From contig JBAQYG010000029.1 of assembly GCA_049299915.1 (NCBI GenBank), positions 194 to 64,193 on the forward strand: a stretch of 64,000 nt of DNA, read 5' to 3'. The position numbers were made by a program, and so were the translations under genes. The notes under the pieces are model-generated. The model was given only the letters and a program-made list of their open reading frames with translations. It searched no databases and was not told where the DNA came from. The DNA comes from Minisyncoccia bacterium (lineage in GTDB: Bacteria > Patescibacteriota > Minisyncoccia > UBA6257 > JAVHQB01). Of this stretch, positions 7,891 through 37,656 are shown one piece after another; position 1 is the first letter of the stretch; each line of letters starts with the position of its first letter.

Positions 7891-8102
7891 ATAAGACAGG
7901 CTAAAATATTAGCCAGTTATAAACTTAATAGCAGAATGGCCAAGAGAAGATTGCTTTTTCCCGATATGAATTTGTTACCCACCATTTTTATCTTATTCGC
8001 TAACTCAATTTTCAGAGAAGAGGGAACTTATCCCGTCTGTTTTAGCGTCAGTATCTAGATAAAAATACTTTTAGCAATCAAAGTTGGCCATATTATACAT
8101 AT

Positions 8103-9629
8103 ATGGATATTTTATATTTTGTCTTAGGTGGAGTGGGGATAGTTTTGGGTGTCTTTATTGGTTACAAAGTTCGTCAAACCTTAGGTCAAAAACAAGCCAA
8201 TTCTATAGAAGCCAAGTTAAAGCTTAAAATAGAAGAAGTAAAAGGCGAAGCCAATAAAATTTTGTTGGAAGCAAAAACGAAATCACAACAATTAGTTGAA
8301 CAGTCTCTAGAAGAAAATTCGCAGCATAAAAAACAACTAATCGAACTGGAAAACAGGCTTATAAAAAGAGAAGAGCTTTTGGATAAGAGGACTGACGAAG
8401 TAGAAGCCAATGCTACTAAACTGGAAGCTAACTTAACTAAAGTGCAAGAAGTTCGAGCTGCTGTCGATGAACTACAAAAGCAAGAAGAAACCAAATTGGC
8501 TGAAGTAGCCGGCTTAAGCCAAGAGCAAGCTAAAGAAGCCCTTTTTGAGGAAATAAAGAAAAATCACGAAAGTGATTTGGCAGATAGCTTCAAAAAATTA
8601 GAAAAAGATCGCGAAGAGGAACTTAATATTAAGGCATCGGGTATTATAGCCACTGTTTTACAAAGATATGCCAGATCGGGAGTAAGTGAGGTCACCACTT
8701 CTTCAGTAAATATTCCTTCAGAAGATATTAAAGGTAAAATTATTGGTCGTGAGGGAAGAAATATTAGACACTTTGAACTATTAAGTGGAGTGGATGTTAT
8801 AGTAGACGAAACTCCTGATAGCATTACTATTTCTTCTTTTGATCCAGTAAGACGTGCTTTGGCTAAATTGGCTTTAGAAAAATTAATTGCCGATGGTAGA
8901 ATTCAACCAGCCAAAATAGAAGAAAAAATTCTAGAAGCTAAAAATGAAATTAACGAACAAATTAAAAAAGCAGGTGAGGAAGCTTGTTATGAGGTTGGTA
9001 TAGTGGGATTACCAAAAGAGATCATTCATTTACTTGGTCGTCTTAATTATAGAACAAGTTATGGCCAAAACGTCTTAACCCATTCTATAGAAGTAGCCAT
9101 CCTTTCAGGGATGATGGCATCAGAGTTGGGAGGTAATGTTGAATTGGCAAAAACGGCCGGGCTTCTTCACGATATTGGTAAATCAGTTGATCATGAATTA
9201 GAAGGTGCTCACCTAGAATTGGGCATTAAGATTATGCAAAAATATGGAGTAAGCCAAGATATCATCAACGCGATGAAATCTCATCATGAGGATTACCCTA
9301 TAGAAATATTAGAAGCCAACTTTGTAAACGCAGCTGACGCTCTATCTGCAGCTAGACCAGGAGCACGCAGAGAGAATATCGAAAACTACTTAAAACGTCT
9401 GGCTAATTTGGAAAAAATAGCTACAGATTTTAAGGGAGTAGAAAAAGCTTATGCCATTCAGGCAGGTAGAGAATTAAGAGTTTTTGTTACTCCTACTCAA
9501 ATAGATGATTATTCTGCCTTAAAGATGGCTAGAGACATTGCCAATAAGATAGAAACAGAAATCCATTATCCTGGAGAAGTGAAAGTGACTGTCATCAGGG
9601 AAACACGAGCTGTTGAATTTGCTAAATAA
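8103..9629 (+). CDS. rny: Ribonuclease Y.
   Basis: N-terminal TM helix, a long coiled-coil, a KH domain (IIGREGRNIRHFELLSGVDV) and an HD domain (LLHDIGK). Confidence 0.9.
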   Translation: MDILYFVLGGVGIVLGVFIGYKVRQTLGQKQANSIEAKLKLKIEEVKGEANKILLEAKTKSQQLVEQSLEENSQHKKQLIELENRLIKREELLDKRTDEVEANATKLEANLTKVQEVRAAVDELQKQEETKLAEVAGLSQEQAKEALFEEIKKNHESDLADSFKKLEKDREEELNIKASGIIATVLQRYARSGVSEVTTSSVNIPSEDIKGKIIGREGRNIRHFELLSGVDVIVDETPDSITISSFDPVRRALAKLALEKLIADGRIQPAKIEEKILEAKNEINEQIKKAGEEACYEVGIVGLPKEIIHLLGRLNYRTSYGQNVLTHSIEVAILSGMMASELGGNVELAKTAGLLHDIGKSVDHELEGAHLELGIKIMQKYGVSQDIINAMKSHHEDYPIEILEANFVNAADALSAARPGARRENIENYLKRLANLEKIATDFKGVEKAYAIQAGRELRVFVTPTQIDDYSALKMARDIANKIETEIHYPGEVKVTVIRETRAVEFAK

Positions 9630-9667
9630 ACTTGGGGCAATTCTTAAATCACGATTTGAAGCTCTTC

Positions 9668-9696
9668 TTGACATTATATTTTGCATTCCCTATACT
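9668..9696 (+). promoter_or_regulatory. Candidate sigma70 promoter (TTGACA, 17 nt spacer, TATACT) upstream of hup.
   Basis: Consensus -35 and near-consensus -10 hexamers with a 17-nt spacer, about 100 nt upstream of the hup ATG. Confidence 0.5.
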
Positions 9697-9795
9697 GAAA
9701 ATGTGTTAAATAAAGCCTTGGCGGCTTTCAATGGTCGATTCGCTAGCCTGAGGCTGAACGATAAATATTAATTAAAATTTTTATTAACTATATTT

Positions 9796-10068
9796 ATGAA
9801 CAAAGAAGATTTAATAGAAGCCATTGTTAATAAAATCAATTGCACCAAGAAAGATGCTCAGGATGCCTTAGAAACTATCATTGATTCCATTACCAAGGCT
9901 CTTTCAAAGGGTGATGATGTTGCTTTAACTGGTTTTGGTTCTTTCACTGTTAAACATAGAGCCGCCAGAAACGGTGTTAATCCTAAGACAGGAGAAAAAA
10001 TAAAGATTGCTGCTGCCAAGGTTCCGAAGTTCAAAGCTGGCAAAGGCCTTAAGGATGCCGTTAAATAA
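9796..10068 (+). CDS. hup: DNA-binding protein HU.
   Basis: A 90-aa protein with HU/IHF-family motifs (GFGSFTVKHRAARNGVNPKTGEKI). Confidence 0.85.
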   Translation: MNKEDLIEAIVNKINCTKKDAQDALETIIDSITKALSKGDDVALTGFGSFTVKHRAARNGVNPKTGEKIKIAAAKVPKFKAGKGLKDAVK

Positions 10069-10086
10069 ATAAATCAAATTAAAAAA

Positions 10087-10109
10087 CTCCCCAAGTTGGG
10101 GAGTTTTTT
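10087..10109. terminator. Bidirectional rho-independent terminator between the convergent hup and rpsA genes.
   Basis: Hairpin ctcccca/tggggag flanked by A-runs and T-runs. Confidence 0.7.
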
Positions 10110-10119
10110 GTATCTTCAC

Positions 10120-11262
10120 TTATTTAATTTCAGGTGGTACTTCAGGAGAGACTTCTTCTAAAGGAATCTCTTCAACCTTTTCTTCTTTAACAACTTTGGG
10201 TTTATCTGTTAAAGATAAGGTCATTTTTCTGCCAGTGGTATCTATACTCTTAATGAAGAATTCTTTAGTTTCTCCTAAAGTAATTTCATTTTTTATAGTC
10301 TCCCAGTTAGCAAATTCTGAAGAGGAACAGAAACCATTCACTCCTGGCTCTATTTCTATAAAGAGCCCTATAGGCAATACTTTCATAATCTTCCCAGAGA
10401 TTTTAGTGAGAAGAACATATCTTTCATTAATCTTATCCCAAGGATCAGCTTTTAAGGCTTTCAAGGATAGAGCCAAACGATCATTATCAGTGCTTATAAT
10501 CTTAGCTTGAATCTTTTGTCCTTCCTGAACATAGTCAGTAGGATTAGAAACTAGTTTGTAATCGAATTCGGAAATATGAATGAGTCCATCTACGGGTGGC
10601 TTACCGAATTGGATAAAGGCACCGAAGTCTACTATTTTAGTAATAGTTCCTTCAACCACTTCACCAACCTGATAATTAGCCATAAGGTCTTTATTCTGGT
10701 CGGATTGGATAAGCTTCTCAGAGAAGATAAGCTTATTTTCTTCGGAATTTACATCCAGAATTTTGACTTCAATTTCCTGACCTATAAATTTCTTTAATTC
10801 AACAAGAATCTTTTCCTTATCACTATTTTCTACCTTAGGATAGTGGGCAGTAGATAATTGAGAGACTGGTAAAAATCCAGTTAAGCCAACGTATTCTACC
10901 AAAAGTCCACCACGATTAGCTTCTTTTACTTTAACCTTAACACTATCTTTACTATCTTTGACGCCAGTAAGTACTCTCCAGGTCCTTTCTCTATTAACTT
11001 CTCTTAAGGAAAGTTCCATAAGCCCTTCTTCGTTAGCAAGGCTTAGGATTTTACCCGAGATAACCTCTCCGATTTTTAAATCCTTAATACTTTCACGAGC
11101 TTGAAGGAACTCGTAGCCACGCACTACTCCGATACCATAAATACCCAGGTCTAAATAAAGGACCCGGTTTTTCTGGTCTAGAACCTTACCCTCTATAACG
11201 CCGTTCTTTTGAGGGTATTTTTTTGCATCCACAGTGGATGTAAGGCTAATAACATTATCCAT
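10120..11262 (-). CDS. rpsA: 30S ribosomal protein S1, short form with about four S1 domains.
   Basis: Repeated S1-domain signatures (GxV..I...GxFV.L). Confidence 0.7.
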   Translation of the reverse strand: MDNVISLTSTVDAKKYPQKNGVIEGKVLDQKNRVLYLDLGIYGIGVVRGYEFLQARESIKDLKIGEVISGKILSLANEEGLMELSLREVNRERTWRVLTGVKDSKDSVKVKVKEANRGGLLVEYVGLTGFLPVSQLSTAHYPKVENSDKEKILVELKKFIGQEIEVKILDVNSEENKLIFSEKLIQSDQNKDLMANYQVGEVVEGTITKIVDFGAFIQFGKPPVDGLIHISEFDYKLVSNPTDYVQEGQKIQAKIISTDNDRLALSLKALKADPWDKINERYVLLTKISGKIMKVLPIGLFIEIEPGVNGFCSSSEFANWETIKNEITLGETKEFFIKSIDTTGRKMTLSLTDKPKVVKEEKVEEIPLEEVSPEVPPEIK

Positions 11263-11321
11263 GTTTGTTGTACCTTAACGTCTTTTAATTTAATTGCGTT
11301 AAGGGTTATTTTTTGGAGATG

Positions 11322-11393
11322 TGGACCCGGCGGGACTCGAACCCGCGATCTTTAGTATGCCATACTAACGCTTTTCCTCTAAGCTACGAGCCC
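11322..11393 (-). tRNA. tRNA-Ala(GGC); no CCA encoded.
   Basis: Reverse complement reads GGGCTCGTAGCTTAG...GGTTCGAGTCCCGCCGGGTCCA with a G3:U70 pair and anticodon loop ATGGCAT. Confidence 0.8.
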
Positions 11394-11513
11394 TTCCAAA
11401 ACACCTCATAATACATTAGTTTCGATTTAATTTCAAGGATGAAGAGCCTTTACCTGCTTTATTTTACCCCTTCTTTATGGTAGATTAGAAACAGATATAA
11501 GCAAAATTTCAAT

Positions 11514-11585
11514 GCCCCCATAGCTCAACGGATAGAGTAGATCCGTCCTAAGGATAAGATGAGGGTTCGATTCCTTCTGGGGGCA
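11514..11585 (+). tRNA. tRNA-Arg(CCT).
   Basis: Sequence GCCCCCATAGCTCAACGGATAGAGT...GGTTCGATTCC..TGGGGGCA with anticodon loop GTCCTAA. There is one G:A mismatch in the anticodon stem. Confidence 0.75.
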
Positions 11586-11617
11586 CTATCTGTATTATTG
11601 TGGGTATAAATTTATTT

Positions 11618-11709
11618 GGAGGGGTGTCTGAGTGGTTTAAAGAGACGGTTTCGAAAACCGTTGTCTCAGATTACTGGGACCGTGAGTTCGAATCTCACCC
11701 CCTCCGCCA
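11618..11709 (+). tRNA. tRNA-Ser(CGA), type II; CCA is encoded.
   Basis: Sequence GGAGGGGTGTCTGAGTGG...GTTCGAATCTCACCCCCTCCGCCA with anticodon loop TTCGAAA and a long variable arm. Confidence 0.85.
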
Positions 11710-11764
11710 AGTTTGGGAATAAAGTAAAATCTTAGAAAGAAGTATAGTTTATTCTATATTTAAA

Positions 11765-21819: not shown

Positions 21820-23139
21820 ATGACCCAAGAAGAAGCTTTAGCTGTTTTAAAGTGTGGCTACAATGTTTTTATTACAGGAGCAGCTGGTTCTGGCAAAACC
21901 TATCTTTTAAGAGAGTACATAGAATATTTAAGAAAACATGGGATTGGAGTCGGAGTGACTGCTTCAACAGGCATTGCCGCTACTCATCTTGATGGTACCA
22001 CCATTCATTCCTGGTCTGGTTTAGGCATGAAAGATATTTTAGATGAAGACGATCTTAGAAAACTCAGTCGAAAACCTTATTTAAAAGAACGATTCAAAAA
22101 AACCAGTGTTTTAATTATCGACGAGATTTCTATGCTTTCTCAGGAGCAATTCGAGAGTCTGGATTTAATCTGCCAAAAGCTAAAGAAAAATGAAAGAAAT
22201 TTCGGTGGAATGCAGATAATTCTTTGCGGAGATTTTTTTCAATTGCCACCGGTAGGCAAAGAAGATGCTTTTGTCTGCGAATCTGAAGTGTGGCAAAGAA
22301 CTAATTTTAAAGTTTGCTATCTCGAAGAACAATATCGGCACCTGGACAAAAAGTTTGTTACCATTTTAGATTCAGTACGGAATAATCAAGTAATAGGGAA
22401 AACGTTGGAACTTTTAAATAAAACACTAACTAAATCAGAAGATGTCTCTAATAAAATAACTAAACTCTATACTCACAATGCAAACGTAGACGAGATAAAT
22501 AGCCAGGAGCTTAGTGCTATGCCTGGCAGGGGAACAACCTACAAAATGACTGACTATGGTGACGAGCATTTGGTTAAGAATCTAAAAAATAGTTGTTTGG
22601 CTAGCGAAGAATTAGTTCTCAAGAAAGGTGCTCTGGTTATGTTTTTAAAGAATAATTTTGAATTGGGATATGTAAACGGCACCCTAGGAACAATTTCTGA
22701 ATGTGAACCAGGGGAAAACCCTGTTGTTTTGACCAAAGATGGTAGACACATTACCGTTCCTCTAGCCAATTGGGAAATAGAAGATGAACAAGGGAAAAAT
22801 GTTTTAGCCATGGTTCAACAATATCCCTTGCGATTAGCTTGGGCTATTACTGTGCACAAAAGCCAAGGGATGACTCTCGATGAAGCCCTCGTCGATTTGT
22901 CTCATTCCTTTACTCCCGGAATGGGCTATGTAGCCCTTTCCCGTGTTAGAACACTCACTGGTCTTCATCTTTTAGGGTTTAATGATATAGCGCTCAAGGT
23001 TAGTAACAAAGCTATTAAATTAGATAAAATTTTTATAGAGCAGTCCAAAAAAATACAAAAAGAGATTTTTAAAACAGAAGATTATAAAACAAGGCAAAAA
23101 GAATATCTAGATTGGCTGCAAACTTTTAGTAATGCTTGA
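21820..23139 (+). CDS. Pif1/RecD-family 5'-3' DNA helicase.
   Basis: Walker A GAAGSGKTY, Walker B LIIDEISML, and the C-terminal VHKSQGMTLD and YVALSRV motifs typical of the Pif1 / AAA_30 / UvrD_C_2 architecture. Confidence 0.75.
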   Translation: MTQEEALAVLKCGYNVFITGAAGSGKTYLLREYIEYLRKHGIGVGVTASTGIAATHLDGTTIHSWSGLGMKDILDEDDLRKLSRKPYLKERFKKTSVLIIDEISMLSQEQFESLDLICQKLKKNERNFGGMQIILCGDFFQLPPVGKEDAFVCESEVWQRTNFKVCYLEEQYRHLDKKFVTILDSVRNNQVIGKTLELLNKTLTKSEDVSNKITKLYTHNANVDEINSQELSAMPGRGTTYKMTDYGDEHLVKNLKNSCLASEELVLKKGALVMFLKNNFELGYVNGTLGTISECEPGENPVVLTKDGRHITVPLANWEIEDEQGKNVLAMVQQYPLRLAWAITVHKSQGMTLDEALVDLSHSFTPGMGYVALSRVRTLTGLHLLGFNDIALKVSNKAIKLDKIFIEQSKKIQKEIFKTEDYKTRQKEYLDWLQTFSNA

Positions 23140-23263
23140 AAAAAATAATTAAAGTGCTATCATCTCCAAGCTGTTCTTTACAAAGCTATTAGGCAATTAA
23201 GTGAGTATCACTTGTTGACCCTTACTTAATTGCTTAGCCAAAAAATAGACAAGGAGGTGTAGA

Positions 23264-23935
23264 ATGAGAATCAATAGTGACGAACTGATTGATTGTATTT
23301 ATGAACTTCTTTCTCCAGACGAGAAGAGGATTGTTGTTTGGCAAAAACTGGGAGAGAAACATTGCCGAGTTACTTTCTTTGATAAAGAAGCTCTTGATCA
23401 AAAGAAAGAAAAAGAGCAAGAGAGAAAAAGAGACATGCTGTTCAGCATTGTTTGTAAAGCCGACAATGACTTAGTCATTGTTCACTGCAATACAGATCAC
23501 CAATTAGCACTCAGTATTTGTTTAGCCCTTTTAAAAAAGGGTTTAGATGTACGTTGTTTTGGACATGATGATCAAGGGGTGACAAAGAGAATTATCTTTG
23601 ACACTACTGTTTGCGATTTTTGTGAGTTTGTAAACAACTTACAGAATATTGCAAACGAACTTAACTTAGCCCTCAGCTTAAATGATAATCCTTTAGGAAA
23701 TTATAACGAGGGTTATCTTCTAGTTCGTATGAAAGAAGCGAATGGACGGGCTAAGATTATTGGGATTTTAATTAACCCTGGTGGTATCTTCCGAGTGACA
23801 ATACTTGATGGGTCGATTGATTTTTCTTATTTGATTTCAAAAATGAATAAGATAAACAATCGATTAATTATCAGAGAAACGATCTCAACCCACACGGGGA
23901 AAAAAGTGGTAACACGTTACAATTATTGCCACTGA
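23264..23935 (+). CDS. Hypothetical protein; first gene of the compositionally distinct island.
   Basis: A strong SD (caaggaggtg) sits 7 nt upstream of the ATG, and GC is visibly higher than in flanking genes. No known motif. Confidence 0.5.
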   Translation: MRINSDELIDCIYELLSPDEKRIVVWQKLGEKHCRVTFFDKEALDQKKEKEQERKRDMLFSIVCKADNDLVIVHCNTDHQLALSICLALLKKGLDVRCFGHDDQGVTKRIIFDTTVCDFCEFVNNLQNIANELNLALSLNDNPLGNYNEGYLLVRMKEANGRAKIIGILINPGGIFRVTILDGSIDFSYLISKMNKINNRLIIRETISTHTGKKVVTRYNYCH

Positions 23936-24108
23936 AGGCTCATTCCCTAGGCCTCAAATGCACATTAAAGCAGCTATTAAATTTATCGGTAGCTGCTTTT
24001 TCTTTGTCTTGCTATATATGATTTTATATTGTATAAATTAAGTATCTAAGCCAAAGTTTTGGCTGCTAAGTAGCACAGTAACAAGTCCAAAGCAAAGGAG
24101 GTAGGGAA

Positions 24109-25545
24109 ATGAGTGAAGAAGAATTACAGGGCCATGATATTGATTTGAGCCGTTTGGGCCCAACAACAAGTATTCGTCTGCTAGACACCAATGTTCTTCT
24201 GGACGATGCAAACGCAATGGAGACTTTTGATGACAGTTGGGTCTTTGTCGGACTTCATACACTGGCAAGTCTGAATAAAATCATTGATAACAGAAATATC
24301 TATCCAAGGACATTTGTAGACGCTAGTTTCGCTATTCAAGCACTGTCTGCATATGAATCTAAAGGCGACCTCAAAAAGGGCGTACCTATGGGCAAAAGTC
24401 TTTTGTTTGTAAACTATGATGGTGAAGATTGGGATGGATTACCTGAGGAAACAAAGAAAGACAAAAAGGATAATACCTTAATTGGTATTGCCAATGGTTT
24501 GAGAAAAAGGCTGTGCGATAATGGTTTGAAACAAAGTGTGATTATTGTTTCTAATAATATCTACCTGAGGATGCAAGCCAATGCCTGTGGTCTTATTGCT
24601 CAGCCTTATAACCAAAGCATTAGAACCATGGAACAACTCTATTCTGGAATTGTGCGAGTTAACCTCAACAAGGATGAAGAACAAAGCATTCTTCCAGACT
24701 TTCGTAGACCAAATGGAGCCATAAGCATAGACGAACTACAAAAAACCCTTCATGGTAAAAAATTGGTTCCTAACCAATTTGTTTACCTTATGGCGGGATC
24801 CAAAAGACAGGCCATTGGTATCTACAATGAAAATGATAGAAAGCTTTCCTACGTCGATTTCAGTGCCCCAAAGCTTCCTCGTAGTTTGGACAAGCCTCTG
24901 GTAGCTCTTAATCCAGAACAGGCCTGTGCAATATATGCACTGAATGATATACATAAGAAAATAGTTTCAGTTGCAGGAGTTGCTGGAACTGGTAAGACTG
25001 TTACTGCCTATGACGCTGGTCTAAGACAAGTCATTGGCAAATTATATGAAAGACTCGTTATCTTTAAGCCAATCAGGGAGGCAAGTGATGCGGAATTATG
25101 TGCTCTTCCTGGTGGTGTAGACGACAAAATGGCCCCTTGGGTAGCTCCAATTATAGCAACTCTCAAGAGGCTCTCTTCAAAAGGACCTAAGGACAAAAAC
25201 CTGGAGCAACTAATAAAAACAGGGGTGATTCAGATCCGGCCTATCAATTATGCAAGAGGTGATTCTATCGAGAACTCTTTCATAATTGTAGAAGAAGCCC
25301 AAAATCTTACACGTAATGAAATTAAGCTTATTATTACGCGGGTAGGAAATGGGTCTAAGATTGTTCTCATTGGCGATCCAACACAATGTGACAATCCACG
25401 TTTGGACTTTGGTTCAACTGGTCTCACATTGGCCATAGAGAAATTCAAAGGACACAAACTGGGTGATGATGACGGTGTTTGTCATGTTACCTTGATTGAG
25501 TCAGAGAGATCTTCGGTAGCTGCTCTTGCTGCTAAGCTTCTCTAA
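24109..25545 (+). CDS. PIN-PhoH fusion ATPase (PhoH2/YlaK-like).
   Basis: N-terminal PIN domain (IRLLDTNVLLDD ... D residues) and C-terminal PhoH P-loop ATPase (VAGVAGTGKTVTA, IIVEEAQNLT, LIGDPTQCD). A strong SD (aaaggaggtag) precedes it. Confidence 0.8.
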   Translation: MSEEELQGHDIDLSRLGPTTSIRLLDTNVLLDDANAMETFDDSWVFVGLHTLASLNKIIDNRNIYPRTFVDASFAIQALSAYESKGDLKKGVPMGKSLLFVNYDGEDWDGLPEETKKDKKDNTLIGIANGLRKRLCDNGLKQSVIIVSNNIYLRMQANACGLIAQPYNQSIRTMEQLYSGIVRVNLNKDEEQSILPDFRRPNGAISIDELQKTLHGKKLVPNQFVYLMAGSKRQAIGIYNENDRKLSYVDFSAPKLPRSLDKPLVALNPEQACAIYALNDIHKKIVSVAGVAGTGKTVTAYDAGLRQVIGKLYERLVIFKPIREASDAELCALPGGVDDKMAPWVAPIIATLKRLSSKGPKDKNLEQLIKTGVIQIRPINYARGDSIENSFIIVEEAQNLTRNEIKLIITRVGNGSKIVLIGDPTQCDNPRLDFGSTGLTLAIEKFKGHKLGDDDGVCHVTLIESERSSVAALAAKLL

Positions 25546-25738: not shown

Positions 25739-26182
25739 ATGCGTGATCATGATAGGCTGGGATCTTTCAAAAGAGGTCTGGATGGACTATGTGAAAAAAA
25801 TGGTTGGCATATTGGCAAGCCTACTACCTTGCAAACGGTATCCAGGGTGGTACAGCTTGATCCTTTAGCCATAAATGACGATGATCAGTTGATCAATTAT
25901 CTCAAGAATCTTTACTCCGGAGCCATGTTGGAGTGGGAAATCTTGTGTTTCCCCGAAAGCTGTAAGGAATTATCCTTTCTAGCCTACTTCAAGCCCGGAT
26001 GTAGTGGAAAAGAGATTGCCATCGTAGAAATGACTTCACAGTTCTACGACTATTATCATGTTAGTCCTCAACAAGCGCAAGATTCTTTCTGGACTACCAT
26101 AGAGAAAGATTCTAAGCTACCCGTCTTTGGAGTAGTCTGGAAATCAGGCAGACGTCCAATCGTTTGCCATTGCGGTGATTAA
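25739..26182 (+). CDS. Hypothetical protein (147 aa) within the island.
   Basis: Strong SD (ataggaggtaagga) and higher GC. No known motif. Confidence 0.5.
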   Translation: MRDHDRLGSFKRGLDGLCEKNGWHIGKPTTLQTVSRVVQLDPLAINDDDQLINYLKNLYSGAMLEWEILCFPESCKELSFLAYFKPGCSGKEIAIVEMTSQFYDYYHVSPQQAQDSFWTTIEKDSKLPVFGVVWKSGRRPIVCHCGD

Positions 26183-26194
26183 GAGGATACATAT

Positions 26195-26602
26195 ATGGAT
26201 AATAGCGTCATCGCCAAACGCTTAGAAACATCAAGTAGGTTTGAAAACACAATGGCAACTCTGGCGAAGCGAGAAGGCTTGTTTCCTATTACTCATATAA
26301 AACAAGGAGATTGTTTGCATCAGGATGCTGCAAGCATGCCTAGTGCCGTTTACCTTGAGACGGTATATGGCCACTTGTTTTATTACAGGGAAACCTTAAC
26401 TTGTTTGAAAGTTGGCGTAATGTTTGGTTTTGGTAAAGTTCGAGATCGTTTCATGGTAGAGGTTGCCTCTCATTACGAGGGTATCTTCCGTGAAAAGTTC
26501 TTACCAACAATCAGAGCCAAATACTCAAGAAAGCAAATCCTGGTTTTTTCTAACCAGGGATCGATACTCTATCGTAGTCCTTCATTTAAGGCCCCGGGAT
26601 AA
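26195..26602 (+). CDS. Hypothetical protein (135 aa) within the island.
   Basis: SD aagagga present and higher GC. It is followed directly by a terminator hairpin. Confidence 0.5.
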   Translation: MDNSVIAKRLETSSRFENTMATLAKREGLFPITHIKQGDCLHQDAASMPSAVYLETVYGHLFYYRETLTCLKVGVMFGFGKVRDRFMVEVASHYEGIFREKFLPTIRAKYSRKQILVFSNQGSILYRSPSFKAPG

Positions 26603-30763: not shown

Positions 30764-33283
30764 ATGGATCCAGATAAAATAATTATAAAAGGTGCGCGCG
30801 TTCATAATCTGAAAGACATCAGTTTAGAAATACCAAAAAATAAATTGGTAGTTTTTACTGGTCTTTCCGGCAGTGGTAAATCATCACTAGCCTTTGATAC
30901 TATTTTTGCCGAAGGGCAGCGTCGTTATATAGAATCTCTTTCTCCTTATGCTCGTCAATTTTTGGGCCAAATGGATAGGCCCGATGTAGATGAAATCACT
31001 GGATTGTCACCAGCCATTGCCATAGATCAAAGGGCTTTAAGCCATAATCCTAGATCAACCGTAGGTACGCTTACGGAAATTTACGATTATCTGAGAGTTC
31101 TCTATGCTCGTCTCGGAGAAGTGTTTTGTCCAATTTGTGGTAGAAAAATTCAAAAATTATCACCCGAAGAAATAGTAGATATTATTTTAAATAAAGGGAG
31201 TGAACTTAAAGAAGAGATCGTTACAATAATGTCACCAGTAGTTCGTTCTAGAAAAGGAGAATATTATCAAACACTCTATGACTATTTAAATTTGGGTTAT
31301 GGTCAAGCTAGAATAGACGGCGAGCTCAGATCCTTAAGGGAACCATTAATTCTTTCTCGGTATAAGAACCATAGCATTGATATCGTTATTGATAGAGTAA
31401 TGCTTAAAGATAGCAGTCGTTTATTTGAAGCGGTAGAAAATGCTCTGGATTATAGTAAGGGGCTAGTGACGGTTATTTTTAAAGAAGGGGGTTTAAAAAA
31501 AGGAAACGATGAGACACTCCTTTCTAGTTTATGGACATGTCCAGAAGATAATTTTGCCTTCCCTGAAATAGAACCACGTCTATTTTCTTTTAATAGTCCT
31601 TCTGGAGCTTGTGAAGAATGCCATGGATTAGGAAGAGTTGGTTTTGAATTAGACAAAACTTGCCCTAAATGTGAAGGCAAAAGATTGAAGCCGGAAGCTC
31701 TTTCTATAAAAATAAGAAATAAAAATATTTATGAAGCTACATCCCTAACAATAGAAGGGGCACATGAATTTTTTAATGCTTATAAAAAAAGTTTGAACGA
31801 AAGACAATTAAAAATAGCCACTAACTTATTGAAAGAAATTATTGATAGACTTCAATTTATGTTAGAAGTTGGGTTAAATTATCTGACCCTCAATAGAGAG
31901 GCTGAAACTTTGTCGGGAGGAGAAGCTCAAAGAATAAGATTGGCGTCACAAATAGGCTCTCAATTGTCTGGCACTTTATATGTATTAGATGAGCCTACAA
32001 TCGGACTCCACGAAAGAGATACTATAAAATTGATTAATACTCTAAACGCTCTTAAAGATCAGGGAAACACCCTTGTGGTTGTAGAACATGACGAGAAAAC
32101 TATAGAAGCAGCTGATTATCTAGTAGATTTAGGACCGGGAGCGGGTAGAAACGGTGGAGAAGTAGTGGCCATAGGGGGGCGAGAAGAATTAATGAAAAAT
32201 CCTAAAAAGTTTCCCAGGTCGCTCACTCTGAAATATTTAACCGGGCAGACTAAGATTAAATTACCGAATAAACGAAGAGACAAAAAGACAGAAGAAATAA
32301 AAATCATAGGAGCTACTAAAAATAATCTTAAGAATATAGAAGTTGATTTTCCCTTGAGGAAATTTGTAGTTCTCACGGGTGTTTCGGGAAGCGGTAAATC
32401 AACTCTCCTCTACGATGTTCTGTATAAAAACTTAATTCACATTAAAAATCATTTCAATAAACCACTTGAAGGGTGCAGTAAAATAAATGGCAGTGAATAT
32501 ATAGATAAGGTGGTGGTAGTAGACCAATCTCCTATAGGCAGGAGTCCTCGGTCTAATCCAGCTACTTATACTGGTATTTGGACACCCATTAGAAAGTTTT
32601 ATGCCGAATTACCTGATGCCCGAGAAAGAGGCTATACAGCCTCACGTTTTTCCTTTAATGTGGCTGGGGGACGTTGTGAATCATGCGAAGGGGCGGGATT
32701 CAATCTTATTGAGATGCATTTTATGCCACCAATTATGGTGAAATGCGATGTTTGTGGCAGTAAGCGTTTTAATAGAGAAACTTTACAGGTGAAATACAAG
32801 GGCAAGAGTATAAGTGATATTTTAAGCTTAACCATAGAAGAAGCAGCTGATTTTTTTAAAGAGAATTGGCAAATAGCCGAAAAATTAAAAGTCTTAGAAA
32901 ATGTAGGACTCGGTTATTTACAATTAGGTCAATCGGCTACAACACTTTCGGGAGGAGAAGCACAAAGGATCAAGTTAGCCCGAGAACTTACTCAGCCACT
33001 AGGAAAGAAATCGCTTTATCTTTTAGATGAACCAACAGTAGGTCTTCATTACTATGACATTGAACTACTTTTACAAGTCATTAATAAATTAATAGAAAAG
33101 GGAAATAGTGTGATAGTAATAGAACATAATATGCAGATTATTAAATCAGCTGATTATGTGATTGATTTGGGCCCAGAGGGTGGCGATAAAGGTGGCAAAT
33201 TAGTCGCCAAAGGAACCCCCGAAGAAATAATTAAAAGCAAAAATTCATACACTGGCTTATACCTTAATGATTATTTGAAATAG
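30764..33283 (+). CDS. uvrA: Excinuclease ABC subunit A (short, 839 aa).
   Basis: Two ABC modules ([14 protein letters not shown] and [13 protein letters not shown]), signature LSGGEAQRI repeated twice, and zinc-finger Cys clusters. Confidence 0.9.
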
Positions 33284-33305
33284 TGCTTCGATATAAATAA
33301 AAAAA

Positions 33306-33333
33306 TACCCAGACTAGTAGCCTGGGTATTTTT
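33306..33333 (+). terminator. Rho-independent terminator after uvrA.
   Basis: Hairpin acccag/ctgggt followed by a T-run. Confidence 0.7.
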
Positions 33334-33410
33334 GACTTACCCCTATCAGTGTGTTATAAGCAAAGTAATTGAACGTTCTTTACATACTATATACAAAAGG
33401 AGGGAAAGAG

Positions 33411-33665
33411 ATGGATTGGGTAGAAGTAATACATCAAGCCACGAATTTGTGTGCCGGTTCGTACAAAATCATCGTAAGAGATAACAACAGCTTTGCGATG
33501 CAATCTAGACGAAGCGAAGTCCATCTGAGTATAGAAAAGGGTACCAACGACAGTATTATCATAAGGTCTGGTTACTGGATTCCAGCTACTGGAATAGAAC
33601 TACTTCTAAACTGGTTCGAAGAGAAACATTATCCCTATACTCACATTCGTGATTGGCCAGAATAG
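33411..33665 (+). CDS. Hypothetical protein (85 aa from the ATG at 33411) in a foreign-signature micro-cassette.
   Basis: Strong SD aaaggaggg 6 nt upstream and higher GC. The track start at 33369 would lack an RBS. Confidence 0.45.
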   Translation: MDWVEVIHQATNLCAGSYKIIVRDNNSFAMQSRRSEVHLSIEKGTNDSIIIRSGYWIPATGIELLLNWFEEKHYPYTHIRDWPE

Positions 33666-33683
33666 CCAAAAAAGGAGGACGAG

Positions 33684-33980
33684 ATGATAGACATTCAAGT
33701 CTTAGACCAACTTACCTTCGGGCTTTTTCCAGGTGAAAAGCTTGTGAAAAATCCAGACGGTAGCTTTACCTACTCGAAAAGAGAAGATATCAAGATTGAT
33801 GATAAAAGTGAAAAAGTTGAAGTCAGGCTGGAGCAACCAGCTTCTGAGGAGAAAACGATCCTCTTGTCTTCTAACGCCGACTTGGATGCTACAGGTCTCT
33901 TGCCATTTCTAGTATGGTTGGGAAACCATAAGTACAAGTATTCTTATTGTTCTCCCACCATGCTGTGTTTTTCATCATAG
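33684..33980 (+). CDS. Hypothetical protein (98 aa); second gene of the micro-cassette.
   Basis: Strong SD aaaaaggagga 6 nt upstream. It is followed by a terminator hairpin. Confidence 0.45.
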   Translation: MIDIQVLDQLTFGLFPGEKLVKNPDGSFTYSKREDIKIDDKSEKVEVRLEQPASEEKTILLSSNADLDATGLLPFLVWLGNHKYKYSYCSPTMLCFSS

Positions 33981-34001
33981 AAAACTGCTCTTTAACCAAA
34001 A

Positions 34002-34033
34002 GCCCCGCCATATCCATGCGGGGCTTTCTCATT
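34002..34033 (+). terminator. Rho-independent terminator after the micro-cassette.
   Basis: Hairpin gccccgc/gcggggc followed by a T-rich tract. Confidence 0.6.
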
Positions 34034-34237
34034 TAATGTAAGTATGCTGTATCTATAAAACACAAAAAGGACCCTTGCGGGACCTAATCGTGCATTGACT
34101 AGCTCTTGCGAACTAATCAACTATAAGAAGTATAACAAATAATGAGTATTTGTCAATATTGGAGAAAAAGATGAAGAAAATTGTAACTCAGAAGAGAATG
34201 TGTTAGTATCAAAATGTTAAGATATTTAATTTTAAAT

Positions 34238-34315
34238 ATGACAGCACGAAAACCCAAAAAAGTAAGATTAGCTAATAAACGAGCTGCTCTCAGAGCTAAA
34301 CTTAAGAAAAAATAA
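34238..34315 (+). CDS. Tiny, highly basic 25-aa ORF (MTARKPKKVRLANKRAALRAKLKKK); not in the ORF track.
   Basis: ATG-initiated and immediately followed by a strong terminator (34322..34344: gccct/agggc plus nine T). The identity is unknown. Confidence 0.25.
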   Translation: MTARKPKKVRLANKRAALRAKLKKK

Positions 34316-34321
34316 AAGAAT

Positions 34322-34344
34322 GCCCTCAAAAGGGCTTTTTTTTT
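34322..34344 (+). terminator. Rho-independent terminator.
   Basis: Five-bp GC-rich stem gccct/agggc followed by a nine-T run. Confidence 0.65.
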
Positions 34345-34390
34345 GTTACTTTTTTAAACATAGAGTATAATCATTTGGATATCAACTACT

Positions 34391-36154
34391 ATGAAATTTT
34401 TTAAAAATATTCCGATTTATACACTAGTTTTTGTTGGTTTATTAATTCTTTCCCCGAAAGTTACTTTAGCCGAGAGTATTCCATTGTTTTCTGGTATCTA
34501 TCAAATTAATACCGATAGTAGTGTTTCTGTTTCGGAAAGCATAGATTATGATTTTGGAGCTGAATATAAACATGGTATTTATCGGAATATAAAAGTAGAA
34601 GGGATTAAAATAAAACCTCAGGAAATTACACTCAATGTCGGAACAGATTGTCCCTATACCACATCTCTCGCTGGAGGAGTCTTCACCTTTAAAATAGGCT
34701 CTCCGAACGAAACTATTACGGGCCGCAATATCTATGGATTACGTTATTTAGCCCAAAATGCTTTGCGTTATTTTTCCGATCAAGATCAATTTTATTTCAA
34801 TGTAACGGGGAATGGGTGGACAGTGCCAATAGAAAAATCTACAGCCACAGTGGTTTTACCTGAGGGTGTTTCAAAAAGCACTATACAATTAGCTTGTTAT
34901 ACCGGAATTTATGGAAGTAAAGACAAGAATTGTACTGCAAGTCTAAATGAAGATGGAAATGCTTTTTTTGAAACGACCCAACCTTTAAATACGGGAGAAG
35001 GACTAACTATAGTTGTTGGTTGGCCCAAAGGATTTGTAAAAGTGGCTAGTAATTATTTTGAATTAGGGGATACAGTTAAGTCTTTTATTTTAGGTATAGG
35101 TTTACTCCTTTTTTTAGTAACTATTCTAGAGGGCATATTCAACTGGTCTCTAAAAGGACGAGATGCTAGTCCCAGTATAATTATTGTGCCCCAGTATGAA
35201 CCCCCTACTGGTTTTACTCCAGCCGAAATGCTCTATCTGATGTACCCCATGAATTATGGGAATTATATATCTAAGGCCATGGGGGCAACCTTAATAGACA
35301 TGGCTTACAATGGCTATATCAATATAAAAGAATTACCTAAATCTTGGTGGCAAAAACAAGATTATCTCATTAGTGAAAACGATAAAACTAAGACAAGAAA
35401 AAGAACAAGCAAAAAGTTTGAAGATGATTTTATGGATTATCTTTTTATTTTTGGAGAAACCTCTCAAACAATGATTAGACAAGTAAAAATGTCTCAAGTT
35501 GGTAAAATCCAAACCCCTAATAAGTTCCCCAGGGAATTAGAAGAAAAAATAACTCAGAGTGAAACTATTAAACCTTATTTTGAAATTTTACCAAAAGAAA
35601 TAATTAAAATTTCTCAGGTTCCAATTAGACTAGCGATAATAACGGGATTGTATTGGATAATGTTTTCCCTAATTCTCTCAAAAACATTTGAGATAATGTT
35701 GGGTTTTATGGTTCCCATCATATTGTGCCTTTCGATACTCTCTGTATTGTATGGAAAATTAATGATCAAAAGGAATTTTAAGGGATTGGAAGGTTATGAA
35801 AAATGCCTAGGTTTTAAAAAATATTTAGCAGTAGCTGAAAAAGATATTTTAGCTTTCCAAGCCAAAATGAAAGAATTAGATTATAAAAATATCTTTGAGA
35901 AATATTTACCATATGCCATTGCCCTAGGAGTAGTAAAAGAATGGGGAAAAGCCTTTGATGGTCTAATTACCGAGCCAATCGACTGGTGGCAAACTTCGAG
36001 CGGTGTTTATAATTATGCGATTTTTACTAGAAGCTTGAATTCTTTTTCTAGTAGTATTGAGCAAAATTCTGCTACCAGTTCCTCTAGTGGTTTTAGCTCG
36101 GGTGGAGGATTTTCTGGAGGAGGTGGCGGTGGAGGAGGTGGGGGAAGTTGGTAG
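34391..36154 (+). CDS. DUF2207-family membrane protein with a poly-Gly C-terminal tail.
   Basis: Signal peptide, a large extracytoplasmic N-domain, central TM helices, and the tail SSSGFSSGGGFSGGGGGGGGGGSW. This architecture is typical of DUF2207 (YciQ-like). Confidence 0.55.
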   Translation: MKFFKNIPIYTLVFVGLLILSPKVTLAESIPLFSGIYQINTDSSVSVSESIDYDFGAEYKHGIYRNIKVEGIKIKPQEITLNVGTDCPYTTSLAGGVFTFKIGSPNETITGRNIYGLRYLAQNALRYFSDQDQFYFNVTGNGWTVPIEKSTATVVLPEGVSKSTIQLACYTGIYGSKDKNCTASLNEDGNAFFETTQPLNTGEGLTIVVGWPKGFVKVASNYFELGDTVKSFILGIGLLLFLVTILEGIFNWSLKGRDASPSIIIVPQYEPPTGFTPAEMLYLMYPMNYGNYISKAMGATLIDMAYNGYINIKELPKSWWQKQDYLISENDKTKTRKRTSKKFEDDFMDYLFIFGETSQTMIRQVKMSQVGKIQTPNKFPRELEEKITQSETIKPYFEILPKEIIKISQVPIRLAIITGLYWIMFSLILSKTFEIMLGFMVPIILCLSILSVLYGKLMIKRNFKGLEGYEKCLGFKKYLAVAEKDILAFQAKMKELDYKNIFEKYLPYAIALGVVKEWGKAFDGLITEPIDWWQTSSGVYNYAIFTRSLNSFSSSIEQNSATSSSSGFSSGGGFSGGGGGGGGGGSW

Positions 36155-36259
36155 AATGTTCCAACCTCTTATATGGAAAAAGAATTAGAAAACAGAAGTA
36201 TTGGCTTATAACAAAGGGCTTATTATTAGATTTTATGAATTTAATTTAAACAAATATAT

Positions 36260-36982
36260 ATGAAATGGAATATTCTTATTAGTTTAATCATAATTGGAAT
36301 TTTAGTTATTTGGGGAGTAACTAGTGACGGATTTGAGCATAATCCTCTAGACACTTTTTATTCATTTAGTTTAGAAAATAAAACAGTAGAAGAAACTCTT
36401 CCAGATGGTTATTTAAAGATTGAATATCCTTTGACCAAATATGAGGTTTTAAATGAAGCCATAAAAACTTTTGTTGATTCTGAGCAAAAAAGTTTCAAAG
36501 AAAATATTAAAGGTCTAACAACTATCAGTAGTGCCAAGGGGAATTTAGAGATTAATTATAAGAGCTACATATCCGATAGAATAATTAGCTTACAATTTGA
36601 CGAGAGTATGGATACTGGCGGGGCTCACGGCAATTTCACTACCACTACTTTTAATTATGATATAAAACTAGGTAAGATTCTAAAAACCCAGGATCTTTTT
36701 AAAGATCCAAATCAATACCTCCAAAGTATCTCTTCAATTGTTAAACCTCGGTTAAAATTGGAATTGGAAAAAATACAATTTCAAGATGATATTTGGTTAG
36801 AAGAAGGAGCTGGCCCAAAGGAAATTAATTATAAACAATTCGTTTGTACTGCTGATGGTATTACTTTTTTCTTTAACCCTTATCAAGTAGCTCCCTATGC
36901 AGCCGGAGCTCAAGACATTACTATTACGTATCAAGAACTTGCTTCTTACTTATTGCCTGAATATTCTCAGCTCAAATTCTAG
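36260..36982 (+). CDS. DUF4163/DUF3298 (RsiV/PdaC-like) domain protein.
   Basis: N-terminal anchor and the DUF3298 signature DTGGAHGNFTTTTFNYD. Confidence 0.55.
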   Translation: MKWNILISLIIIGILVIWGVTSDGFEHNPLDTFYSFSLENKTVEETLPDGYLKIEYPLTKYEVLNEAIKTFVDSEQKSFKENIKGLTTISSAKGNLEINYKSYISDRIISLQFDESMDTGGAHGNFTTTTFNYDIKLGKILKTQDLFKDPNQYLQSISSIVKPRLKLELEKIQFQDDIWLEEGAGPKEINYKQFVCTADGITFFFNPYQVAPYAAGAQDITITYQELASYLLPEYSQLKF

Positions 36983-36987
36983 GACTT

Positions 36988-37656
36988 ATGACCGAGAAGG
37001 AAATAGTTCAATTTTTAAAGAAAAACGGTAAAACAAAGAATGTTTTGGGCATGGCTCGTTTTGGCATCCGTCCTAAAACAAAAGTATATGGATTAAGCGT
37101 AGTTCAAGTACGCCAACTAGCAAAGAAAATTGGCACAAATCATGAACTGGCCCAAGCTCTTTTTTGGAGTAACATTCACGAGTGTCGATGGTTAGCAGCC
37201 ATGATAGATGACCCTTTAGAAATTACTAGTAGTCAGATGGATGAATGGGCAAAAGATTTCGATACTTGGGATGTATGTGATTCTGCCTGCATGAATCTTT
37301 TTCGTTATTCGCCCTTGGCTATTAAAAAATGTTTTAAATGGGCTAAAGAAAAAGATGAATATTATAAGAGAGCTGGTTTTGCCCTCATGGCAGCTCTAGC
37401 TTCTAATAGGAAAAATCTTTTAGATGATAAAAAATTTGAACAATTTTTTCCTGTTATTATAGATGCTAGTAATGACGAGAGAAATTACGTAAAAAAAGCG
37501 GTTAATTGGGCCTTAAGACAAATTGGTAAAAGAAATAAGAATTTACGCACAAAGGCAATACAAATAGCTAAAAGAATAATTACTTTAGATACGCCTTCAG
37601 CTAGATTTATAGGTGGTGATGCCCTAAGAGAATTAGGTAAGACACATGTTAAATAA
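36988..37656 (+). CDS. DNA alkylation repair protein (AlkD/AlkC-like HEAT-repeat glycosylase family).
   Basis: Pattern typical of PF08713 proteins (MARFGI...G....R.LAK.IG..H.LA..LW......E.R.LA). Confidence 0.6.
   Translation: MTEKEIVQFLKKNGKTKNVLGMARFGIRPKTKVYGLSVVQVRQLAKKIGTNHELAQALFWSNIHECRWLAAMIDDPLEITSSQMDEWAKDFDTWDVCDSACMNLFRYSPLAIKKCFKWAKEKDEYYKRAGFALMAALASNRKNLLDDKKFEQFFPVIIDASNDERNYVKKAVNWALRQIGKRNKNLRTKAIQIAKRIITLDTPSARFIGGDALRELGKTHVK

Follow-up and report, generated by a model that had tools for sequence, protein, structure and literature searches.

We analyzed a 64,000-nucleotide (nt) stretch of the genome of Minisyncoccia bacterium (contig JBAQYG010000029.1, positions 194 to 64,193; referred to here as the window) and focused on two small open reading frames (ORFs), ORF1 and ORF2, located between uvrA and a DUF2207 gene. 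Our tentative interpretation, which we rate at slightly below an even chance, is that these ORFs form an autonomous operon of fast-diverging paralogs (A and B, respectively), resident in one lineage, whose products act as a non-enzymatic, probably heteromeric, binding module of an accessory, conflict, or interaction type. The descriptive part of this interpretation is solid, and the mechanism is what we infer from it.

Organization of the ORF1-ORF2 cassette

The uvrA gene ended at position 33283 and was followed by a strong, near-palindromic hairpin at positions 33301 to 33333 (ΔG, -15.3 kcal/mol). This putative intrinsic terminator of uvrA was flanked by an A-run and a T-run and was conserved in the related loci L001 and L007. 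Its T-run overlapped the -35 element of a putative σ70-type promoter on the plus strand (33332 to 33360), which was read from the sequence as TTGACT at 33332 to 33337, a 17-nt spacer, and an extended -10 element, TGtTATAAG, at 33352 to 33360. The -10 element TGTTATAA was invariant in the window, L001, L007, and L019, and equivalent promoter elements were found in L027, L034, L036, and L037. Transcription of the cassette is predicted to start downstream of TGTTATAAG.

The preliminary description of this DNA had placed two small ORFs, each behind a strong AGGAGG sequence, between the uvrA terminator and a second, G+C-rich terminator. This layout held, although ORF1 was 84 amino acids (aa) long instead of 85 aa and the spacing of the AGGAGG sequences was 7 nt and 5 nt instead of 6 nt. 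Specifically, ORF1 (33411 to 33665, plus strand) began with an ATG located 7 nt downstream of a Shine-Dalgarno (SD) site (AGGAGG, 33398 to 33403, plus strand), and an SD site was present in every cassette variant. ORF2 (33684 to 33980, plus strand; 98 aa) followed after an 18-nt intergenic spacer that contained its own SD site (AGGAGG, 33673 to 33678, plus strand), 5 nt upstream of the ATG. The plus-strand cassette terminator (33999 to 34035) consisted of a G+C-rich hairpin at 33999 to 34027 (core, GCCCCGC/GCGGGGC; ΔG, -17.6) followed by UUUCUCAUUU, and it was conserved in L001, L007, L019, L023, L034, and L036. Judged from these signals, ORF1 and ORF2 constitute an autonomous bicistronic operon with its own predicted σ70-type promoter, two canonical SD sites, and its own terminator.

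All of the ORF1 homologs (P0001, P0002, and P0017 to P0022) started at an SD-preceded Met and had a conserved, Trp-containing helix. Neither a longer ORF1 starting at TTG 33369 nor the 55-aa NCBI call for ORF1 (P0003, "Minisyncoccia bacterium") was supported by the N termini of the homologs or by the ribosome-binding site. The NCBI record contained only this 55-aa C-terminal fragment of ORF1, and the public annotation is deficient in this respect. In the case of ORF2, no identical NCBI-sourced protein was returned, and the top match (96%) was from a Logan assembly. We also observed that ORF1 and ORF2 shared a reading frame, with TAG and 18 nt between them (33663 to 33686), and that the same was true of L019, with TAA and 18 nt. 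The conserved SD spacer probably accounts for the common frame.

Paralogy, fold, and rapid divergence of A and B

The ratio of nonsynonymous to synonymous substitution rates (dN/dS) relative to close relatives, whose flanking regions were about 93 to 97% identical at the nt level, was 0.15 to 0.23 for ORF1 and 0.19 to 0.41 for ORF2. Across more distant alleles, for which dS was saturated, the ratio was 0.06 to 0.21. These sequence comparisons indicated that both ORFs are genuine genes under purifying selection. The ORFs were small and unannotated, apart from the ORF1 fragment at NCBI, and might be taken for spurious frames in an intergenic spacer. We consider this idea refuted and almost certainly wrong, because the frames were kept across alleles with saturated dS (dN/dS, 0.06 to 0.4), the SD sites were conserved, and the AlphaFold2 models of the products were confident.

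The ORF1 model had a predicted local distance difference test (pLDDT) score of 89.0 and a predicted template modeling (pTM) score of 0.78, with all five models at a pLDDT of 88 to 89, and the ORF2 model had scores of 83.8 and 0.73. Both models displayed the identical order of elements, α1-β1-β2-β3-β4-α2-β5; ORF1 is predicted to be a small soluble α+β protein, and ORF2 (homologs P0004 to P0015) would add to this fold a conserved C-terminal tail, YKYSYCSPTMLCFS. The ORF1 and ORF2 proteins were 25% identical (BLASTP E value, 5e-6), and the A and B subfamily profiles aligned over 83 columns in hhalign with a probability of 96.2% (E value, 2.3e-9). These results showed that A and B are diverged paralogs of one orphan α+β domain of about 85 to 100 aa. 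As modeled, the domain would have a kinase-associated 1 (KA1)-like topology and a generic, non-catalytic, two-layer α+β architecture. The conserved residues shared by A and B were core hydrophobics and aromatics (L, W, and Y) with no catalytic set, and the structural matches of the models were non-catalytic domains.

A Foldseek search of the models against PDB returned no match with an E value below 0.05, the family profile had no match among PDB sequences, and neither ORF matched KA1 (PF02149) in Pfam at an E value of ≤10. Searches of Pfam, NCBIfam, PADLOC, and PHROGs with ORF1, ORF2, and the proteins of variant cassettes returned only noise, and the defense-system models of PADLOC-DB yielded 0 families for ORF1 or ORF2. 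No DNA-binding antitoxin domain (ribbon-helix-helix [RHH], helix-turn-helix [HTH], AbrB, or Phd type) was detected in A or B, no consistent charge of the kind expected for a DNA mimic or a nucleic acid-binding protein was seen (pI, 4.7 to 9.1), and no further ORF1 or ORF2 paralogs were present in the window. A 13-sequence profile recovered 6 proteins among 1.84 billion representatives, and a 20-sequence profile recovered 19 among 5.8 billion; all members of the family were from metagenome genomes of one Minisyncoccia/Paceibacterota lineage. There were no A or B matches in phage and plasmid collections (tblastn), no matches in IMG/VR to the protein patterns or to the small RNA (sRNA) sequence described below, and no loci in a scan of metagenome contigs beyond those already collected. 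The family matched no known family or system in any test, which does not in itself imply a new mechanism.

Several known domains would be closest to A and B in fold. The KA1 fold is found at the C termini of MARK, BRSK, Chk1, and AMPK-α and in METTL16 and TUT1. The N-terminal domain and the N-repeated domain (NRD) of RnlA and LsoA, which belong to the type II toxin-antitoxin (TA) systems RnlAB and LsoAB, would also be close, with no sequence similarity to A or B. RnlA owes its toxicity to a HEPN ribonuclease domain; this domain was absent from A and B, and no RnlB- or Dmd-like partner was found. Similarity to the heterodimers of the IntS9/IntS11 and CPSF73/CPSF100 C-terminal domains was at the level of fold only; those domains are eukaryotic and are parts of large nucleases, whereas the A/B heterodimer is putative.

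The sequences of A and B changed far more quickly than those of their neighbors. When the window was compared with L027, the neighboring genes were 59 to 90% identical, B was 37% identical, and A was undetectable by BLAST; UvrA identity was 99% within species and 90% between species. The divergence of the cassette exceeded that of its neighbors by an order of magnitude. Within species, ORF2 was 84 to 89% identical at the nt level versus 94 to 97% for the flanks, and its dS was 0.54 versus 0.24 in the flanks; the raised dS pointed to allele exchange. The classes of the two genes were also discordant, as B of the window and B of L036 were 76% identical and the corresponding A proteins were 26% identical, and the A and B allele classes were combined differently among relatives.

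Nine close relatives had the identical gene order uvrB-uvrA-A-B-DUF2207-DUF3298-DNA_alkylation-uvrC. In a sister lineage (L010 and L027 to L033; UvrA identity, 88 to 90%), the site between uvrA and DUF2207 contained three genes behind a homologous TTGACT...TATAAA promoter, namely, X (81 aa), A' (97 aa), and B' (96 aa, with a 29-nt overlap with A'). A third form of the cassette, in L017, consisted of X (62 aa), A'' (88 aa), and B'' (94 aa). In L019, L034, and L036, A and B were again separated by an 18-nt spacer, and the pair came after an MFS_1 gene and a membrane-protein gene on the minus strand, with no uvrBA upstream. An empty site, in which uvrA is directly followed by DUF2207, was not found among the relatives examined, as all three sister lineages had a cassette there, and no integrase, repeats, or transfer RNA (tRNA) gene was found at the cassette borders. 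Comparison of the loci indicated that the cassette is an old, long-standing resident of this chromosomal neighborhood and no recent arrival, and the insertion after uvrA that had been proposed for it was not supported.

In L011 (UvrA identity, 70%), uvrB, uvrA, and uvrC were contiguous, with nothing between uvrA and uvrC. Comparison of positions 33284 to 37645 with L011 positions 7995 to 11711 revealed that a 4.3-kb block parts uvrA from uvrC in the window lineage; it contains the cassette, the sRNA, a small ORF, DUF2207, DUF3298, and an AlkD-like DNA_alkylation gene. The small ORF (34238 to 34315, plus strand) encodes a tiny basic peptide of 25 aa, MTARKPKKVRLANKRAALRAKLKKK, with no SD site and no family match; a terminator (34322 to 34335) followed it, and the ORF was conserved just upstream of DUF2207 in L010, L017, L027, and L034. 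In L027, a duplicated start of this ORF flanked an N run at positions 8722 to 8820, which marks a scaffolding gap. The uvrA gene of L010 (8001 to 10562) carried an in-frame insertion of 14 residues (SGGEAQ PCAVCRPDRGEAQ) that duplicated part of the ABC signature region and is possibly an assembly artifact.

Shine-Dalgarno sites, composition, and a convergent small RNA

The G+C content of ORF1 and ORF2 (0.408 and 0.407) exceeded the gene mean of 0.347, in line with the preliminary description. The G+C content at third codon positions (GC3) was 0.400 for ORF1 (z score, 2.6) and 0.434 for ORF2 (z score, 3.3), which was the window maximum and was matched only by the ORFs at 25739 to 26182 and 26195 to 26602. 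AGGAGG was located upstream of only 5 of the 59 long ORFs in the window, those starting at 23264, 24109 (PIN-PhoH), and 25739 plus ORF1 and ORF2, and these genes fell in two clusters, at 23.2 to 26.2 kb and at 33.4 to 34.0 kb. The signature that had been proposed to be common to the cassette and an island at 23 to 26 kb was, in this respect, stronger than claimed. An SD-like 4-mer of any kind was missing upstream of 50 of the 59 ORFs, and the genome, as sampled by these ORFs, is essentially SD-less.

The same split was seen in the relatives, in which the cassette genes had SD sites and the housekeeping neighbors did not. Raised GC3 was found in all cassette variants, and codon usage was non-native in every lineage. 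This recurrence marks raised GC3 as a feature that has been maintained, and not as a relic that has yet to ameliorate. The preliminary description had held that a conserved position together with native codon usage would count against a foreign module; the position was conserved across the lineage, but codon usage was native nowhere.

The anti-SD motif was found in only 48% of Parcubacteria 16S ribosomal RNAs (rRNAs) (PMC9297842), and since only about half have it, SD-led genes in such a genome are notable. The 64-kb window contained no rRNA, and the SD contrast was drawn from the sequences upstream of the ORFs. The literature on SD usage in the candidate phyla radiation (CPR) contained no account of such cassettes that we could find, and nothing relevant was found in the literature on hypervariable small proteins in Patescibacteria.

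The ORFs at 25739 to 26182 (147 aa) and 26195 to 26602 (135 aa), both on the plus strand, made up a second SD-led, GC3-rich, two-gene cassette with no Pfam matches. Their positional counterparts in L001 were 34% and 36% identical, although L001 was 94 to 97% identical at the nt level elsewhere; this pair was even more hypervariable than ORF1 and ORF2. The 147-aa protein had a conserved C-terminal motif, GVVWK....P(I/F)VCH(C/S)GD, and no sequence similarity was detected between this pair and ORF1 or ORF2. Upstream, on the plus strand, were genes for a Pif1-type helicase (21820 to 23139), an SD-led, family-less protein of 223 aa (23264 to 23935), and an SD-led PIN-PhoH fusion (24109 to 25545). 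The region from 21820 to 25545 may be an accessory or conflict gene neighborhood. The contrast between SD-led and SD-less genes, taken with the 147/135-aa pair, suggests a wider pattern.

Convergent with the operon was a candidate structured sRNA of about 65 nt (34058 to 34122, minus strand), with two GCAA-tetraloop hairpins and a U-tail (minimum free energy, -32.4; z score, -7.8). Its candidate promoter (34129 to 34156, minus strand) consisted of TTGACA, 16 nt, and TATACT with an upstream TG and matched 11 of 12 consensus positions; the TTGACA was invariant in 7 of 7 distinct copies. The candidate also had a terminator of its own. In a covariation analysis of six distinct sequences, 98.6% of the cells in 24 pairs were paired, compared to 37 to 49% in slid controls. 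Two pairs were compensatory and eight were wobble preserving, and several were G-U, so that they pair on the minus strand only. Neither the sRNA candidate nor the leader regions matched a family in Rfam at gathering or permissive thresholds. The sRNA was single copy in the window. It was present at the type I loci and at L019, L034, and L036, and it therefore accompanied the cassette in both upstream contexts; it was absent at this site in L010, L017, and L027 to L033, which have type II or type III cassettes.

Possible roles of the cassette

The A and B partners always co-occurred. Given this co-occurrence, the conservation of core hydrophobics, and the lack of conserved catalytic-type residues, we infer a joint, non-enzymatic binding module. 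The two proteins would work jointly, probably in a heteromer of similar domains, and the resulting module would serve in binding or as an adaptor, with a quickly changing surface toward its partner. Their role would be an accessory one of the conflict or interaction type (inhibitor- or immunity-like) and not that of a poison-antidote pair. Arrays of immunity genes against polymorphic toxins (orphan immunity clusters) are similar in that they are tandem small paralogs with very fast divergence at a fixed locus with conserved flanks, reshuffled allele classes, and a gene number that varies from 2 to 3. They differ in that A and B had no match to Imm, SUKH, or SuFu hidden Markov models and in that positive selection was not detected. 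The lists of ORFs for the window and for related loci showed no toxin gene or remnant near the cassette, whose neighbors were uvrA, the 25-aa basic ORF, and DUF2207, and a Pfam scan of the genes at 21.8 to 28.8 kb detected no toxin domain. Pairwise dN/dS, with the N- and C-terminal halves analyzed apart, was below 0.45 throughout, and with no positive selection detected, weak constraint plus recombination suffices to account for the variability.

The preliminary description had pointed to a TA or small defense module. Type II TA operons do resemble the cassette in that two small genes of atypical composition are cotranscribed between a promoter and a terminator of their own, and one protein would then poison the cell while the other neutralizes it and represses the promoter. 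We consider this highly unlikely, since A and B are paralogs of one fold, had no match to a toxin superfamily (RelE/ParE, MazF/CcdB, PIN, HipA, Fic/Doc, HicA, HEPN, GNAT, and others) or to an antitoxin family (Pfam, NCBIfam, and PADLOC, E value of ≤10, noise only) and no PDB match by profile, and lack RHH, HTH, AbrB, and Phd-type domains. Moreover, it was the NRD of RnlA, and not its HEPN toxin domain, that A and B resembled, the locus was fixed across sister lineages and was not patchy, no phage or plasmid copies were found, and the sister lineages had three genes and not two. The broader notion of a defense module had no PADLOC match in its favor, but the extreme divergence between close relatives fits an accessory or conflict-type role. 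Slightly less probable even than a TA module is that A and B are accessory factors of nucleotide-excision or alkylation repair tied to the uvrB-uvrA...DNA_alkylation-uvrC cluster. In its favor, three sister lineages had the pair in the interval from uvrA to uvrC. However, it had its own promoter behind a strong uvrA terminator, it followed the MFS_1 and membrane-protein genes with no uvrBA upstream in L019 and L036, and uvrA abutted uvrC in L011; a partner of UvrA, given the identities of 99% within and 90% between species, is not expected to be 37% identical or less.

It is also improbable that A and B bind the convergent sRNA and that the three parts form one ribonucleoprotein unit. The type II and III cassettes had no such RNA at the site, the RNA was about 85 to 95% conserved while the proteins fell to 23 to 30% identity, which amounts to poor coevolution, and A and B had no consistent basic charge. 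We assign a similarly low likelihood to recent, unameliorated foreign cargo from a phage, a plasmid, or another phylum. The GC3 z scores of 2.6 to 3.3, the perfect SD sites in an SD-poor genome, and the within-species dS of ORF2, which suggests that alleles were imported by recombination, would all be compatible with such an origin. Yet the signature was found in all allele classes and all sister lineages at the same locus and behind a homologous promoter, which argues that it is old and maintained; no homologs were found outside the lineage or in phage, plasmid, and viral collections, and the borders had no integrase, repeats, or tRNA gene.

Beyond the binding module itself, the SD data raise a more speculative idea, which we regard as doubtful, if less so than these alternatives. 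Hypervariable cassettes (A/B and the pair at 25.7 to 26.6 kb, the latter close to the SD-led genes for the 223-aa protein and PIN-PhoH at 23.2 to 25.5 kb) that retain AGGAGG and raised GC3 through deep allelic divergence would make up a separate class of genes for conflict or host interaction, one that is privileged in translation, in an essentially SD-less, Parcubacteria-type lineage, and A/B, possibly with the convergent sRNA, would be an undescribed module of two KA1-like domains.

CPR bacteria are believed to live in attachment to other microbes, and for most of the genes specific to their lineages there is no explanation. Should the A/B pair be no more than an orphan under weak constraint, its interest would be only local. 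The cassette offers a tractable example of a chromosomal site that is fixed while its occupants, two small paralogous proteins, turn over much more quickly than the surrounding genome. SD sites kept by selection on a few hypervariable genes would shed light on the partitioning of translation initiation in such bacteria, and other CPR genomes could be searched for sites of this kind to locate genes for conflict or symbiosis.
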